NCBI RefSeq assembly: GCF_003790525.1
Contig: NZ_CP033635.1
Source: Escherichia coli
GTDB lineage: Bacteria > Pseudomonadota > Gammaproteobacteria > Enterobacterales > Enterobacteriaceae
DNA: 64,000 nucleotides
Reading direction: 5' to 3' (one strand)
The translations under genes were made by a program, and so were the position numbers. Each line of letters opens with the position of its first letter. Within the stretch, counting starts at the first letter, position 1. Below are positions 6,219-46,222 of the stretch, one piece after another. The notes beneath the pieces were generated by a model. That model was not told the origin of the DNA and made no database searches. It was given only the letters and a program-made list of their open reading frames with translations.

Positions 6219-6234
6219 TTGTATTGTGATCGGT

Positions 6235-6312
6235 AAGCCGGATAAGGCGCTCGCGCCGCATCCGGCAACGATGCCGACTGCCTGATGCGACGCTGACCGC
6301 GTCTTATCAGGC
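6235..6312. repeat. REP cluster between yjdM and yjdN
   Basis: GCCGGATAAGGCGC...GCATCCGGC and GCCTGATGCGACGCTG...TCTTATCAGGC palindromic units. Confidence 0.6.
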
Positions 6313-6377
6313 TTCCCTCTCATCTGTATAAATTTCGAACTACACTTAACTGGCTTCTCTTAACTGAGGTCACCATC

Positions 6378-6953: not shown

Positions 6954-7742
6954 ATGCAAACGATTATCCGTGTCGAGAAGCTCGCCAAAACCTTCAATCA
7001 GCATCAGGCGCTGCATGCGGTTGATCTGAACATTCATCACGGTGAAATGGTGGCTCTGCTTGGGCCGTCGGGTTCCGGCAAATCCACCCTTTTACGTCAC
7101 TTAAGCGGTTTGATTACCGGCGATAAATCTGCCGGTAGCCATATCGAGCTGCTGGGCCGCACAGTCCAGCGCGAAGGCCGCCTGGCCCGCGATATCCGCA
7201 AAAGCCGCGCCAACACCGGCTACATCTTCCAACAATTCAACCTGGTGAATCGCCTGAGCGTACTGGAGAACGTGCTGATTGGCGCGCTCGGCAGCACGCC
7301 GTTCTGGCGCACCTGTTTTAGCTGGTTCACCCGCGAGCAGAAACAGCGCGCGTTACAGGCGCTGACCCGCGTTGGCATGGTGCATTTTGCCCATCAGCGC
7401 GTTTCCACCCTCTCCGGCGGCCAGCAGCAGCGTGTGGCGATTGCCCGCGCGCTGATGCAGCAGGCGAAGGTGATTCTGGCCGATGAACCCATCGCCTCGC
7501 TGGACCCGGAATCGGCGCGCATCGTGATGGACACCCTGCGCGACATTAACCAGAACGACGGCATTACCGTGGTCGTCACGCTGCATCAGGTGGATTACGC
7601 CCTGCGCTACTGCGAACGCATCGTCGCCCTGCGCCAGGGGCACGTCTTCTACGACGGCAGCAGCCAACAGTTTGATAACGAACGTTTTGACCATCTCTAC
7701 CGCAGCATTAACCGCGTCGAAGAGAACGCGAAAGCTGCCTGA
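6954..7742 (+). CDS. phnC: Phosphonate ABC transporter ATP-binding protein PhnC
   Basis: ORF track; Walker [13 protein letters not shown] signature LSGGQQQR, Walker B ILADEP. Confidence 0.95.
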
Positions 7743-7766: not shown

Positions 7767-8783
7767 ATGAACGCTAAGATAATTGCCTCGCTGGCCTTCA
7801 CCAGCATGTTCAGCCTCAGCACCCTGTTAAGCCCGGCGCACGCCGAAGAGCAGGAAAAGGCGCTGAATTTCGGCATTATTTCAACGGAATCACAGCAAAA
7901 CCTGAAACCGCAATGGACGCCGTTCTTACAGGATATGGAGAAGAAGCTGGGCGTAAAGGTCAACGCCTTCTTTGCCCCGGACTACGCGGGCATTATCCAG
8001 GGGATGCGCTTCAATAAAGTGGATATCGCCTGGTACGGCAACCTGTCGGCGATGGAAGCGGTGGATCGCGCCAACGGTCAGGTCTTCGCCCAGACAGTCG
8101 CGGCGGATGGATCGCCAGGTTACTGGAGCGTGTTGATCGTCAACAAAGACAGCCCGATCAACAACCTGAACGATCTGCTGGCGAAGCGTAAAGATCTCAC
8201 CTTTGGCAATGGCGATCCTAACTCCACCTCTGGCTTCCTCGTCCCCGGTTACTACGTCTTTGCCAAAAACAATATCTCCGCCAGCGACTTCAAGCGCACC
8301 GTCAACGCCGGGCATGAAACCAATGCGCTGGCCGTCGCCAACAAGCAAGTGGATGTGGCGACCAACAATACCGAAAACCTCGACAAGCTGAAAACCTCCG
8401 CACCAGAGAAGCTCAAAGAACTGAAGGTGATCTGGAAATCGCCGCTGATCCCAGGCGATCCGATCGTCTGGCGCAAAAATCTTTCCGAAACTACCAAAGA
8501 CAAGATCTACGACTTCTTTATGAATTACGGCAAGACGCCGGAAGAGAAAGCGGTGCTGGAACGCCTGGGCTGGGCCCCGTTCCGCGCCTCCAGCGACCTG
8601 CAACTGGTGCCGATTCGCCAGCTCGCACTGTTTAAAGAGATGCAGGGCGTGAAAAGCAATAAAGGGCTGAATGAGCAGGACAAGCTGGCGAAAACCACCG
8701 CGATTCAGGCGCAGCTGGATGACCTGGACCGCCTGAACAACGCGTTAAGCGCGATGAGTTCGGTAAGTAAAGCGGTGCAGTAA
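7767..8783 (+). CDS. phnD: Phosphonate ABC transporter periplasmic binding protein PhnD
   Basis: ORF track; N-terminal signal peptide; operon position. Confidence 0.95.
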
Positions 8784-8847
8784 TGGTTTTCTCCCTCTCC
8801 CCGAAGGGGCGAGGGAACCGATCGAGCACACAATCACGGAGCCAAAC

Positions 8848-9627
8848 ATGCAAACCATCACCATCGCCCCACCCAAGCGCAGCTGGTTCTCGCTTCTGAG
8901 CTGGGCCATTGTTCTCGCCGTGTTGGTCGTCTCGTGGCAGGGCGCGGAAATGGCCCCGCTTACGCTGATCAAAGACGGCGGCAACATGGCGACGTTCGCT
9001 GCCGACTTCTTCCCGCCCGATTTCAGCCAGTGGCAGGATTACCTCACCGAAATGGCCGTCACGCTGCAAATCGCCGTCTGGGGCACCGCGCTGGCGGTGG
9101 TTCTCTCCATCCCCTTCGGTCTGATGAGCGCCGAAAACCTGGTGCCGTGGTGGGTTTACCAGCCCGTACGCCGCCTGATGGACGCCTGCCGCGCCATTAA
9201 CGAAATGGTCTTCGCCATGCTGTTCGTGGTCGCCGTCGGCCTTGGCCCGTTCGCTGGCGTGCTGGCGCTGTTTATCCACACCACCGGCGTGCTCTCCAAG
9301 CTGCTTTCCGAAGCGGTAGAAGCGATCGAACCCGGCCCGGTGGAGGGCATTCGCGCCACCGGTGCCAACAAGCTGGAAGAGATCCTCTACGGCGTGCTGC
9401 CACAGGTGATGCCGCTGCTGATCTCCTACTCCCTCTATCGTTTCGAATCCAACGTCCGCTCGGCGACCGTCGTCGGCATGGTCGGTGCAGGCGGGATCGG
9501 CGTCACCCTGTGGGAAGCGATTCGCGGTTTCCAGTTCCAGCAAACCTGCGCCCTGATGGTGCTGATTATCGTCACGGTCAGCCTGCTGGATTTCCTCTCT
9601 CAACGGTTGCGTAAGCACTTTATCTGA
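8848..9627 (+). CDS. phnE: Phosphonate ABC transporter permease PhnE (intact allele)
   Basis: Single uninterrupted 259-aa ORF in track; multi-TM permease; GGAG RBS upstream. Confidence 0.9.
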
Positions 9628-9647: not shown

Positions 9648-10373
9648 ATGCACTTGTCTACACATCCGACCAGCTACCCAACACGCTATCAGGAGATAGC
9701 CGCAAAACTTGAGCAGGAGCTTCGTCAACACTACCGCTGCGGCGACTATCTTCCCGCCGAGCAGCAACTGGCGGCGCGCTTTGAGGTGAACCGCCACACC
9801 CTGCGCCGCGCCATCGACCAACTGGTGGAAAAAGGTTGGGTACAGCGCCGTCAGGGCGTCGGCGTGCTGGTGCTGATGCGCCCGTTCGATTACCCGCTCA
9901 ACGCCCAGGCGCGTTTTAGCCAGAACCTGCTGGACCAAGGCAGCCATCCCACCAGCGAAAAATTGCTATCGGTGCTGCGCCCCGCCTCCGGTCACGTCGC
10001 TGACGCATTGGGGATTACCGAGGGCGAGAACGTTATCCACCTGCGCACCCTGCGTCGGGTCAACGGCGTCGCGCTCTGTTTAATCGACCACTACTTTGCG
10101 GACCTCGCCCTCTGGCCGACGCTGCAACGCTTCGACAGCGGCTCGCTGCACGATTTTCTGCGCGAGCAAACCGGAATTGCGCTGCGCCGCAGCCAGACGC
10201 GGATCAGCGCCCGCCGCGCCCAGGCCAAAGAGTGCCAGCGTCTTGAAATCCCGAATATGTCGCCGCTGCTGTGCGTGCGCACCCTTAACCACCGTGACGG
10301 TGAAAGCAGCCCGGCGGAGTACTCCGTCAGCCTGACGCGCGCCGACATGATTGAATTCACTATGGAGCACTGA
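9648..10373 (+). CDS. phnF: GntR-family repressor PhnF, 241 aa
   Basis: ORF track 9639..10373 trimmed to MHLSTHPTSYP start; N-terminal wHTH, UTRA-like C-terminus. Confidence 0.9.
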   Translation: MHLSTHPTSYPTRYQEIAAKLEQELRQHYRCGDYLPAEQQLAARFEVNRHTLRRAIDQLVEKGWVQRRQGVGVLVLMRPFDYPLNAQARFSQNLLDQGSHPTSEKLLSVLRPASGHVADALGITEGENVIHLRTLRRVNGVALCLIDHYFADLALWPTLQRFDSGSLHDFLREQTGIALRRSQTRISARRAQAKECQRLEIPNMSPLLCVRTLNHRDGESSPAEYSVSLTRADMIEFTMEH

Positions 10374-10826
10374 ATGCACGCAGATACCGCGACCCGCCAG
10401 CACTGGATGTCCGTACTGGCGCACAGCCAACCGACTGAGCTGGCAGCCCGCCTGAACGCGCTGAACATCACCGCCGACTATGAAGTAATCCGCGCCGCTG
10501 AAACCGGCCTGGTGCAGATTCAGGCGCGGATGGGTGGCACCGGCGAACGCTTTTTTGCTGGCGACGCCACGCTCACCCGCGCCGCCGTACGCCTGACTGA
10601 CGGCACGCTCGGCTACAGCTGGGTGCTGGGGCGCGACAAACAGCACGCCGAACGCTGCGCGCTGATCGACGCGCTGATGCAGCAAACCCGCCATTTTCAA
10701 AACTTATCAGAAACTCTTATTGCCCCGCTGAACGCTGACCGTATGGCACGCATTGCCGCACGCCAGGCCGAAGTAAACGCCAGCCGGGTCGACTTCTTTA
10801 CGATGGTTCGCGGAGATAACGCATGA
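10374..10826 (+). CDS. phnG: C-P lyase core complex subunit PhnG
   Basis: ORF track, 150 aa; operon position. Confidence 0.93.
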
Positions 10827-11407
10827 CCCTGGAAACCGCTTTTATGCTTCCCGTGCAGGATGCCCAGCACAGTTTTCGTCGCCTGTTAAAGGCCATGAGC
10901 GAGCCGGGCGTGATTGTCGCCCTGCATCAGCTCAAACGCGGCTGGCAGCCGCTGAATATCGCCACCACCAGCGTGCTGCTGACGCTGGCCGATAACGACA
11001 CGCCGGTGTGGCTTTCTGCGCCATTAAGTAACGATATCGTCAGCCAGAGCCTGCGTTTTCATACCAACGCGCCGCTGGTCAATCAGCCGGAACTGGCGAC
11101 CTTCGCGGTAACGGATGAGGCGATTTCCAGCGAACAGCTTAACGCCCTTTCCAGCGGCACCGCTGTTGCGCCAGAAGCGGGCGCGACGCTGATTTTACAG
11201 GTCGTCAGCCTGAGCGGCGGGCGCATGCTGCGCCTTACTGGCGCGGGTATTGCCGAAGAACGAATGATCGCCCCGCAGCTGCCGGAGTGCATTCTGCACG
11301 AACTTACCGAGCGCCCGCACCCGTTCCCGCTCGGCATCGACCTGATCCTGACCTGCGGCGAGCGCCTGCTGGCTATCCCGCGAACCACTCATGTGGAGGT
11401 GTGCTGA
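10823..11407 (+). CDS. phnH: C-P lyase core complex subunit PhnH
   Basis: ORF track, 194 aa; 4-nt overlap with phnG stop. Confidence 0.93.
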
Positions 11408-12471
11408 TGTACGTTGCCGTGAAAGGGGGCGAGAAGGCGATCGACGCCGCCCACGCCCTGCAAGAGAGCCGACGCCGGGGCAATACCGATTTGCCTGAAC
11501 TGAGCGTCGCCCAGATTGAACAGCAGCTTAATCTTGCAGTAGATCGCGTGATGACCGAAGGCGGCATTGCCGACCGCGAACTGGCGGCGCTGGCGCTGAA
11601 ACAGGCCAGCGGCGATAACGTCGAAGCGATTTTCCTGCTACGCGCCTACCGCACCACGCTGGCGAAGCTTGCGGTGAGCGAGCCGCTCGACACCACGGAG
11701 ATGCGTCTCGAACGGCGTATTTCAGCGGTTTATAAAGATATTCCCGGCGGCCAGCTGCTTGGCCCAACCTACGACTACACCCATCGCCTGCTCGATTTCA
11801 CCCTGCTGGCAAACGGCGAAGCGCCGACGCTGACCACAGCCGACAGCGAACAACAGCCGTCGCCGCACGTTTTCAGCCTGCTGGCGCGTCAGGGGCTGGC
11901 GAAGTTTGAAGAAGATAGCGGCGCACAGCCGGACGACATCACCCGCACGCCGCCGGTTTACCCCTGCTCACGCTCCTCCCGCCTGCAACAATTAATGCGC
12001 GGCGACGAAGGCTATTTGCTGGCGCTGGCCTACTCCACCCAGCGTGGTTACGGACGCAATCATCCGTTCGCAGGCGAAATCCGCAGCGGCTATATCGACG
12101 TGTCGATTGTGCCGGAAGAGCTGGGATTTGCGGTGAACGTCGGCGAACTGCTGATGACCGAATGTGAAATGGTCAACGGTTTTATCGACCCGCCGGATGA
12201 GCCGCCGCACTTCACGCGCGGCTACGGGCTGGTGTTCGGCATGAGCGAGCGCAAAGCGATGGCGATGGCGCTGGTTGACCGCGCTCTACAAGCCCCGGAG
12301 TACGGCGAGCACGCGACAGGCCCGGCGCAGGATGAAGAGTTCGTGCTGGCGCATGCCGACAACGTCGAAGCCGCAGGCTTTGTCTCGCACCTTAAACTCC
12401 CGCACTACGTCGATTTCCAGGCCGAACTGGAGCTACTCAAACGTCTGCAACAGGAGCGGAACCATGGCTAA
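11407..12471 (+). CDS. phnI: C-P lyase core complex subunit PhnI, 354 aa
   Basis: ORF track 11287..12471 trimmed to [16 protein letters not shown] start overlapping phnH stop. Confidence 0.93.
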   Translation: MYVAVKGGEKAIDAAHALQESRRRGNTDLPELSVAQIEQQLNLAVDRVMTEGGIADRELAALALKQASGDNVEAIFLLRAYRTTLAKLAVSEPLDTTEMRLERRISAVYKDIPGGQLLGPTYDYTHRLLDFTLLANGEAPTLTTADSEQQPSPHVFSLLARQGLAKFEEDSGAQPDDITRTPPVYPCSRSSRLQQLMRGDEGYLLALAYSTQRGYGRNHPFAGEIRSGYIDVSIVPEELGFAVNVGELLMTECEMVNGFIDPPDEPPHFTRGYGLVFGMSERKAMAMALVDRALQAPEYGEHATGPAQDEEFVLAHADNVEAAGFVSHLKLPHYVDFQAELELLKRLQQERNHG

Positions 12472-13309
12472 TCTGAGCGGCTACAACTTTGCCTACCTCG
12501 ACGAGCAGACCAAACGCATGATCCGCCGCGCCATCTTAAAAGCGGTGGCGATCCCCGGTTATCAGGTGCCGTTTGGCGGGCGCGAGATGCCGATGCCGTA
12601 CGGCTGGGGAACTGGTGGTATCCAGCTTACCGCCAGCGTGATTGGCGAAAGCGACGTGTTGAAGGTGATTGACCAGGGTGCGGATGACACCACCAACGCG
12701 GTGTCGATCCGTAACTTCTTTAAGCGCGTGACCGGGGTAAACACCACTGAACGTACGGACGATGCGACGCTTATCCAGACGCGCCACCGCATCCCCGAAA
12801 CGCCGCTGACCGAAGATCAGATCATTATTTTCCAGGTGCCGATCCCCGAACCGCTGCGCTTTATCGAGCCGCGCGAAACGGAGACCCGCACCATGCACGC
12901 GCTGGAGGAGTACGGCGTGATGCAGGTGAAACTGTATGAAGATATCGCCCGCTTCGGTCATATCGCCACCACCTACGCCTATCCGGTGAAGGTAAACGGG
13001 CGCTACGTAATGGACCCGTCGCCGATCCCGAAATTCGATAACCCAAAAATGGACATGATGCCCGCCCTGCAACTGTTCGGCGCGGGGCGCGAGAAGCGCA
13101 TCTATGCGGTGCCGCCGTTTACCCGCGTGGAAAGCCTCGATTTCGACGATCACCCGTTCACCGTTCAGCAGTGGAATGAGCCATGCGCCATCTGCGGATC
13201 GACCCACAGCTATCTCGACGAAGTGGTACTGGATGACGCCGGAAACCGCATGTTTGTCTGCTCCGATACCAATTATTGCCGCCAACAGAGCGAGGCAAAA
13301 AACCAATGA
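12464..13309 (+). CDS. phnJ: Alpha-D-ribose 1-methylphosphonate 5-phosphate C-P lyase PhnJ, 281 aa
   Basis: ORF track 12275..13309 trimmed to MANLSGYNFAYLDEQ start; C-terminal Cys cluster (CAICGSTHSYLDE...CSDTNYC). Confidence 0.93.
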   Translation: MANLSGYNFAYLDEQTKRMIRRAILKAVAIPGYQVPFGGREMPMPYGWGTGGIQLTASVIGESDVLKVIDQGADDTTNAVSIRNFFKRVTGVNTTERTDDATLIQTRHRIPETPLTEDQIIIFQVPIPEPLRFIEPRETETRTMHALEEYGVMQVKLYEDIARFGHIATTYAYPVKVNGRYVMDPSPIPKFDNPKMDMMPALQLFGAGREKRIYAVPPFTRVESLDFDDHPFTVQQWNEPCAICGSTHSYLDEVVLDDAGNRMFVCSDTNYCRQQSEAKNQ

Positions 13310-14064
13310 ATCAACCGTTACTTTCGGTCAATAACCTGACCCACCTTTACGCGCCGGGCAAAGGCTTTAGCGATGTCTCTTTTGATTTATGGCCGGGGGA
13401 AGTGCTGGGCATCGTCGGGGAATCCGGCTCCGGGAAGACCACGCTGCTGAAGTCGATCTCCGCGCGCCTGACGCCGCAGCAGGGGGAGATTCGCTATGAA
13501 AACCGCTCCCTCTATGGCATGAGCGAAGCCGACCGCCGCCGTTTACTGCGCACCGAATGGGGCGTGGTACATCAGCATCCGCTCGACGGCCTGCGCCGCC
13601 AGGTATCGGCAGGCGGCAATATCGGCGAGCGGCTGATGGCGACCGGGGCGCGTCATTACGGCGACATCCGCGCCACCGCGCAGAAGTGGCTGGAAGAGGT
13701 GGAGATTCCCGCTAACCGGATCGACGACCTGCCGACCACCTTTTCCGGCGGCATGCAGCAGCGTTTGCAGATTGCCCGCAACCTGGTGACGCATCCGAAG
13801 CTGGTGTTTATGGACGAGCCAACCGGCGGGCTGGATGTGTCGGTGCAGGCGCGCCTGCTCGACCTGCTGCGCGGCCTGGTGGTGGAGCTGAACCTGGCGG
13901 TGGTGATTGTCACCCACGATTTAGGCGTCGCCCGCCTGCTGGCGGACCGTTTGCTGGTGATGAAGCAGGGGCAGGTGGTGGAGAGTGGGTTAACCGACCG
14001 CGTGCTCGACGACCCGCATCATCCGTATACCCAGCTGCTGGTGTCATCGGTTTTGCAGAATTGA
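13306..14064 (+). CDS. phnK: C-P lyase accessory ABC-type ATPase PhnK, 252 aa
   Basis: ORF track 13276..14064 trimmed to [11 protein letters not shown] start; Walker [10 protein letters not shown]. Confidence 0.93.
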
Positions 14065-14065
14065 G

Positions 14066-14158
14066 CCGGTGCCGGATGCGGCGTAAACGCCTTATCTGGC
14101 CTACAAATGCGCTCCCCGTAGGTCGGATAAGACGCGTCAGCGTCGCATCCGACACCCG
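14066..14158. repeat. REP cluster inside the phn operon, between phnK and phnL
   Basis: GCCGGATGCGGCGTAAACGCCTTATC... and GGTCGGATAAGACGCGTCAGCGTCGCATCCGAC units. Confidence 0.6.
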
Positions 14159-14174
14159 AACCACGAGGCGAAAA

Positions 14175-14855
14175 ATGATTAACGTACAAAACGTCAGTAA
14201 AACCTTCATCCTGCATCAGCAAAACGGCGTACGCCTGCCCGTCTTACAACGTGCCTCGCTCACCGTCAACGCAGGCGAATGCGTGGTGCTCCACGGTCAC
14301 TCCGGCAGCGGCAAATCAACCCTGCTGCGCTCGCTGTACGCCAACTATCTACCCGACGAAGGTCAAATCCAGATCAAACACGGTGACGAGTGGGTAGACC
14401 TGGTCACCGCGCCAGCGCGCAAAGTGGTGGAAATCCGCAAAACCACCGTCGGCTGGGTGAGCCAGTTTCTGCGCGTCATCCCGCGTATCTCAGCACTGGA
14501 AGTGGTGATGCAGCCGCTGCTCGATACCGGCGTTCCGCGTGAAGCCTGCGCCGCTAAAGCCGCGCGTCTTCTCACCCGCCTGAACGTGCCGGAACGCCTG
14601 TGGCACCTGGCACCATCGACATTTTCCGGTGGCGAACAGCAGCGCGTCAACATCGCCCGCGGCTTTATCGTCGACTACCCCATTCTGCTGCTTGACGAAC
14701 CTACCGCCTCGCTGGACGCCAAAAACAGCGCCGCGGTGGTGGAACTGATTCGCGAAGCCAAAACCCGTGGCGCAGCCATCGTAGGCATCTTCCATGACGA
14801 AGCTGTACGTAATGACGTCGCCGACCGCCTGCACCCAATGGGAGCCTCTTCATGA
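14175..14855 (+). CDS. phnL: C-P lyase accessory ABC-type ATPase PhnL, 226 aa
   Basis: ORF track 14061..14855 trimmed to [11 protein letters not shown] start; Walker [10 protein letters not shown]. Confidence 0.93.
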
Positions 14856-15988
14856 TTATCAATAACGTTAAGCTGGTGCTGGAAAACGAGGTGGTGCACG
14901 GTTCGCTGGAGGTGCAGGATGGCGAAATCCGCGCCTTTGCCGAAAGCCAGAGCCGCCTGCCAGAAGCGATGGATGGCGAAGGCGGCTGGCTGCTGCCGGG
15001 GCTGATTGAGCTGCATACCGATAATCTGGATAAATTCTTCACCCCGCGCCCGAAGGTTGACTGGCCCGCCCACTCGGCGATGAGTAGCCACGACGCGCTG
15101 ATGGTGGCGAGCGGCATCACCACCGTGCTGGACGCGGTGGCGATTGGCGACGTGCGCGACGGCGGCGATCGGCTGGAGAATCTGGAGAAGATGATCAACG
15201 CCATCGAAGAGACGCAGAAACGCGGCGTCAACCGCGCCGAGCACCGTCTGCATCTGCGCTGCGAACTGCCGCATCACACCACGCTGCCGCTGTTTGAAAA
15301 ACTGGTGCAGCGCGAACCGGTGACGCTGGTGTCGCTGATGGATCACTCGCCGGGCCAGCGCCAGTTCGCCAATCGCGAGAAGTATCGCGAATATTATCAG
15401 GGCAAATATTCCCTCACCGATGCGCAGATGCAGCAGTACGAAGAGGAACAGCTGGCGCTTGCCGCACGCTGGTCACAGCCTAATCGCGAAACTATCGCCG
15501 CAATGTGCCGCGCGCGACACATTGCCCTCGCCAGCCACGATGACGCCACGCACGCCCACGTTGCCGAATCCCACCAGCTTGGCAGCGTGATCGCCGAATT
15601 TCCCACCACGTTCGAAGCGGCAGAAGCCTCGCGCAAGCATGGCATGAACGTGCTGATGGGCGCGCCGAATATCGTGCGCGGCGGTTCGCACTCCGGCAAC
15701 GTGGCGGCCAGTGAACTGGCGCAGCTTGGCCTGCTGGATATCCTCTCTTCCGACTACTACCCCGCCAGCCTGCTCGATGCGGCATTTCGCGTCGCCGATG
15801 ACGAGAGCAACCGCTTTACGCTGCCGCAGGCGGTGAAGCTGGTGACTAAAAATCCGGCGCAGGCGCTTAATCTTCAGGATCGCGGGGTGATTGGCGAGGG
15901 CAAACGCGCCGACCTGGTGCTGGCGCATCGCAAGGGCAACCACATTCATATCGACCACGTCTGGCGTCAGGGTAAAAGGGTGTTCTGA
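14852..15988 (+). CDS. phnM: RPnTP diphosphatase PhnM (amidohydrolase fold), 378 aa
   Basis: ORF track; 4-nt overlap with phnL stop. Confidence 0.93.
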
Positions 15989-16545
15989 TGACGGGAAAAC
16001 TGATTTGGTTAATGGGGGCCTCTGGCTCCGGAAAAGACAGTCTGTTGACGGAACTCCGCCAGCGGGAACAAACTCAGCTACTGGTAGCGCATCGCTACAT
16101 CACGCGCGCCGCCAGCGCCGGAAGTGAAAACCATATCGCCCTGAGCGAGCAGGAGTTTTTTACCCGCGCGGGGCAGAACCTTCTGGCCTTAAGCTGGCAC
16201 GCTAACGGTCTGTATTATGGCGTCGGCGTCGAGATTGACCTCTGGCTGCACGCTGGATTTGACGTGGTGGTCAACGGCTCACGCGCCCATCTGCCGCAGG
16301 CGCGGGCGCGCTATCAATCGGCGCTGCTGCCCGTTTGTTTACAGGTTTCGCCAGAGATCCTGCGCCAGCGCCTGGAAAACCGTGGTCGTGAAAATGCCAG
16401 TGAAATTAACGCCCGGCTGGCGCGCGCTGCCCGCTATACTCCTCAGGATTGTCTTACGCTCAATAATGACGGCAGCCTGCGCCAGTCGGTCGACAAGCTG
16501 CTGACGCTGATTCATCAGAAGGAGAAACACCATGCCTGCTTGTGA
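15988..16545 (+). CDS. phnN: Ribose 1,5-bisphosphate phosphokinase PhnN, 185 aa
   Basis: ORF track; P-loop GASGSGKDS. Confidence 0.93.
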
Positions 16546-16966
16546 GCTTCGCCCGGCTACGCAGTACGACACCGACGCAGTTTACGCGCTGATTTGTGAG
16601 CTAAAACAGGCGGAGTTTGACCACCACGCGTTTCGCGTGGGGTTTAACGCCAATCTGCGCGATCCGAACATGCGCTACCATCTGGCGCTGCTGGATGGCG
16701 AAGTTGTCGGCATGATCGGCCTGCATTTGCAGTTTCATCTGCATCATGTCAACTGGATCGGCGAAATTCAGGAACTGGTGGTGATGCCGCAGGCGCGCGG
16801 TCTGAATGTCGGCAGCAAATTACTGGCATGGGCAGAAGAAGAAGCCCGCCAGGCCGGGGCCGAAATGACTGAGCTTTCCACCAACGTGAAGCGCCACGAC
16901 GCGCACCGTTTCTATCTGCGCGAAGGCTACGAGCAGAGCCACTTCCGCTTCACCAAGGCGCTGTAA
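16532..16966 (+). CDS. phnO: Aminoalkylphosphonate N-acetyltransferase PhnO (GNAT), 144 aa
   Basis: ORF track; GNAT fold; overlaps phnN 3' end. Confidence 0.93.
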
Positions 16967-16967
16967 C

Positions 16968-17726
16968 ATGAGCCTGACCCTCACGCTCACCGGCACCGGC
17001 GGCGCACAGGGCGTTCCGGCATGGGGCTGCGAGTGCGCGGCCTGCGCCAGAGCACGACGCTCGCCGCAGTATCGCCGCCAGCCATGCAGCGGCGTAGTAA
17101 AGTTTAACGACGCAATCACCCTGATCGACGCCGGGCTGCACGATCTCGCCGATCGCTGGTCGCCAGGATCGTTCCAGCAGTTTTTGCTGACGCATTATCA
17201 TATGGATCACGTCCAGGGGCTGTTTCCGCTGCGCTGGGGCGTGGGCGATCAGATCCCGGTCTACGGCCCGCCGGATGAACAGGGCTGCGACGATCTGTTT
17301 AAACATCCGGGCCTGCTTGATTTCAGCCACACGATGGAACCGTTTGTGGTGTTTGATTTACAAGGGTTACAGGTCACGCCCCTGCCGCTCAACCACTCAA
17401 AACTGACCTTCGGTTATCTGCTGGAAACGGCACACAGCCGGGTGGCGTGGCTGTCTGACACCGCTGGCTTGCCGGAAAAAACGCTGAAATTTTTACGCAA
17501 TAATCAGCCGCAGGTAATGGTGATTGATTGCAGCCACCCGCCGCGCGAGGATGCACCGCGTAATCACTGTGATTTAAATACCGTGCTTGCGCTGAATCAG
17601 GTTATCCGCTCGCCACGGGTGATTCTGACCCATATCAACCACCAGTTTGATGCGTGGCTGATGGAAAACGCACTGCCGTCGGGGTTTGAGGCGGGGTTTG
17701 ATGGGATGGAGATTGGGGTGGCGTGA
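16968..17726 (+). CDS. phnP: Phosphoribosyl 1,2-cyclic phosphate phosphodiesterase PhnP (MBL fold), 252 aa
   Basis: ORF track; metallo-beta-lactamase motif HYHMDH; last gene of phn operon. Confidence 0.93.
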
Positions 17727-20857: not shown

Positions 20858-20948
20858 ATGATGCCGGATGGTGATGCTAATGAAGTGTCTTATCCGGCCA
20901 ACAAAATAACCTGAACGTAGACCTGATAAACGTAGCCCATCAGGCAAT
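20858..20948. repeat. REP cluster between alsB and alsA
   Basis: GATGCCGGATGG...CTTATCCGGCC and GACCTGATAAACGTAGCCCATCAGGC units. Confidence 0.6.
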
Positions 20949-35523: not shown

Positions 35524-35680
35524 TGTAGGCCTGATAAGACGCGTTAATCGTCGCATCAGGCGTTGATGTCGGATGCGGCGTAAACGCCTTATCCGACCTA
35601 CAAAATCACGCTAAATCAGGCTATTGCGCTGTCTGACGTAGGCCTGATAAGACGCGGCAAGCGTCGCATCAGGCATCCAC
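35524..35680. repeat. BIME: at least three REP units between yjcO and gltP
   Basis: Alternating AGGCCTGATAAGACGCG...GCATCAGGC and CGGATGCGGCGTAAACGCCTTATCCGACC units. Confidence 0.65.
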
Positions 35681-46099: not shown

Positions 46100-46222
46100 A
46101 CAATTGCCGGATGCGATCCGGGCAACAAGTCGGAAACGATTTGTAGGCCTGATAAGACGCGACAGCGTCGCATCAGGCATTGATTGCCGGATGCGGCATA
46201 TAACGCCTTATCCAGCCTACAT
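46100..46222. repeat. REP cluster between acs and yjcH
   Basis: TGCCGGATGCGATCCGGGCA, AGGCCTGATAAGACGCGACAGCGTCGCATCAGGC and TGCCGGATGCGGCATATAACGCCTTATCC units. Confidence 0.65.

Follow-up and report, generated by a model that had tools for sequence, protein, structure and literature searches.

A Y-Z2 REP pair in the phnK-phnL gap of Escherichia coli and its probable bearing on phn operon mRNA levels

The 110-nt gap that separates phnK from phnL in Escherichia coli holds an ordinary E. coli Y-Z2 REP pair, that is, a two-unit BIME (BIME-2 type) or REPIN. In published RNA-seq data the phn operon mRNA drops at this very point, and we consider it probable (roughly 0.6) that the REP pair causes the step between phnK and phnL by serving as a decay barrier and a partial terminator, a causal role and a route that we infer from correlative data. 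This kind of element, and almost certainly this particular instance too, is already known; the REP family has been catalogued in E. coli for four decades. Finding a textbook element in the best-studied bacterial genome therefore adds little. Slightly more interest attaches to the fact that a single seam is dimorphic for BIME and BoxC-like repeats and has been occupied repeatedly in different genera. As it holds a REP pair, a BoxC-like array or nothing at all, the seam between phnK and phnL (K|L) is a clean natural test case, of modest value, for REP function. If the step is indeed caused by the repeats, their turnover from strain to strain would tune the ratio of core to accessory C-P lyase genes while leaving promoters and proteins untouched, and this would bear on phosphonate and glyphosate use and on operon engineering.

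The phnK-phnL gap and its REP pair

The window, i.e. the whole stretch of 64,000 nucleotides analysed here, is 100% identical to E. coli SMS-3-5 NC_010498.1 (minus strand of that record). According to the ORF lists and the MG1655 annotation, the phn operon lies on the plus strand of the window and comprises phnC (6954-7742), phnD (7767-8783), phnE (8848-9627), phnF (9648-10373), phnG (10374-10826), phnH (10823-11407), phnI (11407-12471), phnJ (12464-13309), phnK (13306-14064), phnL (14175-14855), phnM (14852-15988), phnN (15988-16545), phnO (16532-16966) and phnP (16968-17726). The phnK gene, whose translation of 252 aa matches the annotated phnK of SMS-3-5 at 100%, ends with the stop codon TGA at 14062-14064, and phnL (226 aa) begins with the ATG at 14175-14177 and overlaps phnM by 4 nt. 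The gap thus delimited runs exactly from 14065 to 14174, in agreement with the coordinates and the distance of about 110 bp given by the initial annotation. That annotation had also remarked that most phn genes overlap or abut, which is right for phnF through phnP, while the junctions from phnC to phnF have small gaps (C/D 24, D/E 64 and E/F 20 nt, around the transporter genes). The remaining distances, with overlaps as negative values, are 0 nt for F/G, -4 for G/H, -1 for H/I, -8 for I/J, -4 for J/K, -4 for L/M, -1 for M/N, -14 for N/O and +1 for O/P; K/L, at +110 nt, is the sole junction within phnF-phnP at which the genes neither overlap nor abut, all others falling between +1 and -14 nt. 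It may be added that phnE, annotated as a pseudogene in K-12 MG1655, is an intact ORF of 259 aa in the window.

On the plus strand, the gap reads TGA GCCGGT GCCGGATGCGGCGTAAACGCCTTATCTGGCCTAC AAATGCGCTCCCC GTAGGTCGGATAAGACGCGTCAGCGTCGCATCCGAC ACCCGAACCAC GAGG CGAAAA ATG, from the phnK stop codon to the phnL start codon. The first unit is a Y-type REP of 34 nt (14071-14104) on the minus strand, where it reads GTAGGCCAGATAAGGCGTTTACGCCGCATCCGGC; the mRNA strand therefore carries it as an iREP. It is followed by a 13-nt linker (14105-14117) that lies between the two GTAG heads and forms the loop of the long hairpin described below, and then by a Z2-type REP of 36 nt (14118-14153) on the plus strand, identified by pattern matches. 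Outside positions 14068-14156, whose MG1655 counterpart falls within 4317896-4318005, about 20 nt of spacer remain (TGA...CGAACCACGAGGCGAAAAATG). Several minor candidates in and around the gap were rejected: the minus-strand ORFs at 13910-14209 and 14019-14222 and a TTG-extended phnL ORF starting at 14061 are mechanical ORFs running through the palindrome, and the one promoter candidate, a weak minus-strand match inside phnK, was taken as a chance match.

REP sequences are non-autonomous palindromic DNA elements recognised by a TnpA-REP (RAYT) transposase. Both units in the gap match the head pattern GTAGGNCNGATAAGRCG with 0 mismatches each, and each palindrome has GTAGG directly on its 5' side (plus strand, 14118; minus strand, 14104-14100). 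Both also have the AA/GC bulge, which shows up in the folds as an internal loop (GAT-AA-G / C-GC-ATC), and they are arranged as inverted units with their heads facing each other 13 nt apart, as in a BIME or REPIN. In the 64 kb of the window, where chance would give 0.12 copies of the head motif, 10 were counted at 5 intergenic loci, and the 36-nt REP pattern gave 2 matches against 0.00 expected. As is typical of a dispersed, high-copy, extragenic repeat, no part of the pair reaches into phnK or phnL, and it has a median of 2 (at most 9) extra megablast places per E. coli genome. These features agree with the published description of E. coli REPs, in which a GTAG head precedes an imperfect palindrome of about 35-37 nt with an AA/GC bulge and the units are sorted into y, z1 and z2 types (PMC8266576); 34 and 36 nt also fall into the range of about 29-37 nt for REPs as a whole. 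The features bear out the earlier suggestion that the gap is filled with two inverted REP units. Further REP loci in the window are a single unit at 20886-20902, a triple at 35525-35654 and a pair at 46143-46220.

With the Y-Z2 BIME-2 elements or REPINs of E. coli, the phnK-phnL element shares the GTAG head, the 34-36-nt palindrome, the AA/GC bulge, the short linker, the extragenic site just 3' of a gene and the many copies per genome; nothing essential sets it apart, although it consists of one pair and not of a tandem cluster. BIME-1 (RIP) elements, as Bachellier and colleagues are said to have described them in 1994, consist of Y and Z1 units around a long linker with an IHF site. Here the second unit is a 36-nt Z2 and not a 29-nt Z1, and an IHF-like WATCAANNNNTTR motif was not found in the 13-nt linker when this was read by eye; the element therefore does not belong to the IHF-binding BIME-1/RIP class. 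An Rfam search of the gap returned only matches to naRNA4 (RF02564), at 36.6, 32.6 and 29.5 bits, all below the gathering score of 59.5, and no other RNA family. The element is hence not a member of naRNA4 and is related to it through shared REP units. In the MG1655 numbering it is presumably the REP element just below REP325.

Hairpin, mRNA levels and a putative decay barrier

When folded as RNA, the Y unit alone gave -20.1 kcal/mol (z = -3.8) and the Z2 unit alone -21.3 kcal/mol (z = -5.2), while the pair formed one long hairpin of -56.3 kcal/mol (z = -8.4) that accounts for 87% of the ensemble. With its flanks the pair folded at -58.5 kcal/mol (z = -5.5). Each of these folds beat every shuffled sequence, and in the partition function the linker has a pairing probability of about 0. 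The minus strand of the pair folds more weakly (-51.7 kcal/mol) than the mRNA strand. The hairpin is followed by CACCCGAACCACGAGG, i.e. there is no U-tract after the GC-rich stem, and the element is therefore not an intrinsic (Rho-independent) terminator; in line with this, a search for terminator-like sites (a stem plus a T-run) in 13600-14600 found 0.

Read densities along the operon were calculated as DESeq2-normalised counts divided by gene length for MG1655 grown in 0.2 mM phosphate (Fitzgerald et al., PMC10294691 Table S1), a single dataset with two replicates. In thousands per kb, they were 41 for phnC and 140 for phnD; 15, 16, 11, 15 and 20 for phnF, phnG, phnH, phnI and phnJ; 30 (29.6) for phnK and 3.6 for phnL; and 7.0, 9.9, 5.8 and 2.2 for phnM, phnN, phnO and phnP (all from the PMC10294691 counts). 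The fall from phnK to phnL is thus 8.2-fold, and it was reproducible in both replicates. In addition, phnK tops the F-K block, standing at 1.9 times the mean of phnF-J, and the mean of phnL-P is 2.8-fold under that of phnF-J. With phnK raised, phnL-P lowered and read-through continuing, the data look as they should if the REP acted as a decay barrier and in part terminated transcription. The step is not a clean one: phnM and phnN exceed phnL two- to three-fold, a recovery that would not follow from simple termination at the REP and may reflect decay specific to phnL or poor phnL translation. Published work on phosphate starvation reported a single phnC-P transcript whose coverage declines along its length, together with a phnGHIJK sub-transcript assembled in another condition (Li et al., PMC3734233). 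Among the other sources consulted, the supplements of PMC3734233 and PMC12306157 have no phnK entries, PMC7657598 gives knockout fold changes only, without expression levels, and our literature search found no paper joining phnK/phnL with REPs or palindromes.

The initial annotation had proposed that the REPs may stabilise the upstream mRNA or attenuate downstream expression and may thereby set apart a phnC-K half and a phnL-P half of the operon, and it had named uniform transcript coverage and missing hairpins as the observations that would speak against this. Since coverage is uneven at the junction and stable hairpins are predicted for each unit and for the pair, neither was found. The MG1655 step agrees with the proposed effect on neighbouring mRNA, although the agreement is correlative and causality is a matter of interpretation. 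As to the two halves, phnL-P is indeed lower, but phnC-K is not one block, the larger step occurring after phnD.

We picture the course of events as follows. Transcription from the phnC promoter would produce, directly past the phnK stop codon, either two hairpins of about 20 kcal each or one of 56 kcal. RNA polymerase, meeting no U-tract, would mostly pass the element. The hairpin would then stop 3'-to-5' exonucleases, so that decay intermediates ending at the REP would keep phnK and the genes upstream of it while phnL-P would be lost, and some Rho-dependent termination would probably take place in the untranslated C-rich stretch beyond the hairpin. The net outcome would be more mRNA for phnC-K than for phnL-P. 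Protein stoichiometry provides no obvious reason for an eight-fold difference between phnK and phnL mRNAs, because the functional complex is Phn(GHIJKL)2, in which PhnK and PhnL stand at 2:2 (PMC9947105).

The closest precedent is REP325, located between yjdM and yjdN, which stabilises its upstream mRNA and is in part a Rho-dependent terminator, as established by deletion, Northern blots and Rho inhibition (Harris et al., bioRxiv 10.64898/2026.03.23.713779). The same study found a median log2 upstream/downstream ratio of 0.96 for 146 tandem gene pairs separated by REPs versus -0.09 for controls, as well as context-dependent effects, in that REPs do not change half-lives uniformly. Like the phnK-phnL element, REP325 (the source of naRNA4, RF02564) belongs to the REP family, lies in the same neighbourhood and separates tandem co-transcribed genes. 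It differs in having 12 hairpins in MG1655 against 2 in the phnK-phnL element, and its behaviour has been shown experimentally whereas the role of the phnK-phnL element is proposed. In the window, the REP325 homologue occupies 6233-6316 in the yjdM-yjdN gap, 8 kb upstream, and consists of two palindromic units, both with degraded GTAG heads.

A second precedent is the REP between malE and malF, the classic mRNA decay barrier (PMC5927463). As in phn, an intra-operon REP pair follows the more abundant gene, lacks a U-tract and allows read-through. In mal, however, the gene protected is a periplasmic binding protein gene at the head of its operon, whereas the phn barrier would come after phnK, which is not the first gene, and both of its neighbours, phnK and phnL, encode ATPase subunits used at 2:2.

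Two further observations concern other parts of the operon. The phnD-phnE gap (8784-8847, core 8793-8816) holds a BoxC-like GC-rich hairpin, CCCTCTCCCCGAAGGGGCGAGGGA, that folds at -23.5 kcal/mol (z = -2.8) and, read in the opposite orientation, differs at one position from the repeat unit found in the alternative phnK-phnL allele described below. Read density drops about 9-fold from phnD to phnF in MG1655, so that the operon's other mRNA step is also located at a palindromic repeat. In a phoB deletion strain, residual counts climb toward the 3' end of the operon, from 4-27 for phnF-K to 87-229 for phnN-P (PMC10294691 Table S1), which hints that weak, PhoB-independent transcription enters the distal phn genes.

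Seam content within E. coli and across species

The phnK-phnL junction is present in 5387 of 5426 complete E. coli genomes. The REP pair was found in 4841 of them (~90%), and the other 546 (~10%) have an unrelated, BoxC-like filling of 176 nt in its place; as these two numbers add up to 5387, no empty site was seen among the E. coli genomes with the junction. Apart from the stop codon and the 20 nt that precede the phnL ATG, GAGG among them, the two alleles have nothing in common. What fills the gap in the 546 genomes is a repeat of GC-rich palindromes (CCCCTCGCCCCTTCGGGGAGAGGGTTAGGGTGAGGGG and relatives) that folds at -98 kcal/mol. Its sequence appears to resemble that of BoxC, and this likeness, together with the unit size of 56-62 bp and the copy number of the repeat family (median 17, up to 29 places per genome), is consistent with membership in the BoxC family. 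Published BoxC elements are 56 bp long and present in 22-32 copies (PMC2267715). BoxC is a GC-rich palindrome, like the alternative allele and the phnD-phnE hairpin and with a similar unit size and copy number, but it is a sequence family apart from REP and has no GTAG head. Examples of the BoxC-like filling are positions 566-741 of the loci L002/L003 (E. coli HCP4S3_I4 and H2), which correspond to 14065-14156 of the window; strain O121 RM8352 (NZ_CP028110.1) likewise has the BoxC allele.

MG1655 carries the REP allele and differs from the window by one base, at 14097. There, a C to T change in the Y unit is private to SMS-3-5 and keeps a G-U pair on the mRNA strand only; likewise, some strains have T instead of C at 14067, which still allows a G-U pair. 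Comparison of 8 strains with the REP allele revealed 7 polymorphic columns in the 110-nt gap, fewer than in the 120 nt of coding sequence on either side (14 and 17). Where the gap varies, the change concerns the GTAG head, the bulge or the loop, or else it leaves a G-U pair in the mRNA. This low polymorphism fits a constraint on the RNA hairpin and fits equally well homogenisation or gene conversion among REP copies.

For comparison with other species, 80 loci encoding PhnL relatives were fetched; start codons of distant species are approximate, and the enterobacterial subset and the overlap counts were relied on. The phnK and phnL genes overlap at 4 of 79 loci, leaving 75 of 79 without overlap, with a median gap of 25 nt, as against 39 of 77 overlapping for J-K and 59 of 76 for L-M; among the enterobacterial loci, every J-K junction is -4, and L-M takes values of -4 or -14. 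Because overlap of K and L is rare across species, the seam is ancient, predates the REP and is independent of the repeats. The gap measures just 7-9 nt in Leclercia (L. adecarboxylata), an Enterobacter MAG and Citrobacter sp. FP75, where the stop codon runs into the Shine-Dalgarno sequence or lies immediately next to it (TAAGAGGCGAACATG). Other enterobacteria have REPs of their own species type in the gap: one in E. cloacae and RIT691, two in Citrobacter werkmanii and Pluralibacter, and three in E. asburiae, and the Cedecea seam is likewise occupied by species-specific REPs. Outside this group, the gaps of the alphaproteobacteria Pelagibacterium limicola (210 nt; L045 1290-1501) and Devosia geojensis (253 nt; L053 1247-1501) are filled with long GC-rich palindromes of the CCCCTCCCC...GGGGAGGGG type that fold at -130 and -128 kcal/mol, and the seam has therefore been taken by an unrelated repeat in distant lineages. 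One further locus, QNRL01000011.1 (L042 1202-1501), labelled Pseudocitrobacter faecalis DSM 27453, has a 298-nt gap with four tandem BoxC-like units; its PhnL and PhnK are 99.6% and 98.4% identical to those of SMS-3-5, far above any other genus, which suggests a mislabelled or contaminated assembly or a recent transfer.

Judged by these comparisons, the seam content turns over quickly, and the REP pair is dispensable and replaceable in nature. Since it is replaced in 10% of E. coli and relatives manage with 7-9 nt, its presence may reflect a permissive site rather than regulatory selection. On the simplest reading, extragenic palindromes gather at K|L because it is the only spot of this gene block where an insertion spares both the ORFs and the start/stop overlaps.

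It is somewhat unlikely, in our estimation, that the REP pair is a neutral passenger, a selfish or hitch-hiking sequence tolerated at the one non-overlapping junction of phnF-P, with the mRNA step arising from the seam itself through Rho polarity, RNase E sites within phnL or the uncoupling of translation. The age of the seam, the E. coli dimorphism and the fast turnover that leaves enterobacteria with 0, 1, 2 or 3 species-specific REPs all speak for such a passenger. In addition, the level of phnL RNA below phnM and phnN hints at an instability peculiar to phnL, and uncoupled translation followed by 110 nt of naked RNA could explain polarity. However, the excess of phnK RNA over phnF-J is what a 3' barrier would be expected to produce, an effect has been demonstrated for the nearby REP325, and REP-separated tandem pairs are biased genome-wide. 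Moreover, the BIME is less polymorphic than the adjoining coding sequence, and an empty site is missing from the 5387 E. coli genomes. We prefer to regard the REP pair as a probable decay barrier with partial termination.

Possible effects on translation and on DNA

A different role, which is unlikely in our view though compatible with a decay barrier, is that of a brake on PhnK translation, whereby the stem near the stop codon would make ribosomes stall, leading to mRNA cleavage, tmRNA tagging and less PhnK per mRNA. REPs located less than 16 nt past a stop codon stall terminating ribosomes and lower the amount of the upstream protein, according to Liang, Rudd and Deutscher (2015) as relayed by PMC12306157. 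In the phn operon, phnK ends at 14064, the first paired base is at 14068 and the REP itself begins at 14071, which places the stem 3-6 nt from the stop and within that range; a down-regulating effect would be predicted from this spacing by analogy. A brake would also suit published structures with one or two copies of PhnK per Phn(GHIJ)2 core (PMC9947105). On the other hand, the functional Phn(GHIJKL)2 complex has equal amounts of K and L, with no obvious need for less PhnK, and a REP is lacking both in the BoxC allele and in those relatives whose site is empty.

Quite doubtful, and reaching further, is the notion that the K|L seam has been selected to carry a structured RNA 'insulator', for which several repeat families would have been recruited convergently: Y-Z2 REPs, BoxC-like arrays, the species REPs of Citrobacter, Enterobacter, Pluralibacter and Cedecea, and the palindromes of Devosia and Pelagibacterium. 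Such an insulator would set the core/accessory mRNA ratio, mask the phnL Shine-Dalgarno sequence and make PhnL synthesis dependent on phnK translation, and with the phnD hairpin it would give rise to a three-level expression staircase.

Still less probable is a coupling of translation by the structure alone. The phnL Shine-Dalgarno sequence, GAGG (14165-14168), lies 6 nt before the ATG and does not vary among 8 E. coli strains, nor does the BoxC allele depart from it. In the predicted fold, the phnK stop codon comes to lie next to the ribosome-binding site of phnL: G14167, G14168 and C14169 would pair with C14067, C14066 and G14065, so that GCC at 14065-14067 and GGC at 14167-14169 might mask half of the Shine-Dalgarno sequence, and phnL would be translated mainly once a ribosome ending phnK has opened the base of the stem. 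These six bases have pairing probabilities of 0.80-0.96 in the partition function and are also paired in the minimum-free-energy fold, and the pairing would withstand the C to T change at 14067. The adjacency of stop codon and Shine-Dalgarno sequence in the relatives with an empty site makes close coupling look ancestral, and one might speculate that the hairpin would restore at a distance the proximity of stop codon and ribosome-binding site seen in them. However, the interaction comprises 3 base pairs only, situated beside an internal loop, it is absent from the fold of the BoxC allele, and it is a thermodynamic prediction throughout.

Finally, a DNA-level role, in which the element would relieve supercoiling in a long, highly induced operon as a gyrase or nucleoid-protein site of the BIME-2 type, is highly improbable: although gyrase cleaves BIME-2 elements in vivo (Espeli and Boccard 1997, cited in PMC8266576 and PMC3184786), the element is a single Y-Z2 pair rather than a cluster, no nucleoid compaction or REP-REP contacts were found for REP325 (Harris et al., bioRxiv 10.64898/2026.03.23.713779), the minus strand has the weaker fold, and with T in place of C at 14097 pairing is kept on the mRNA strand only.
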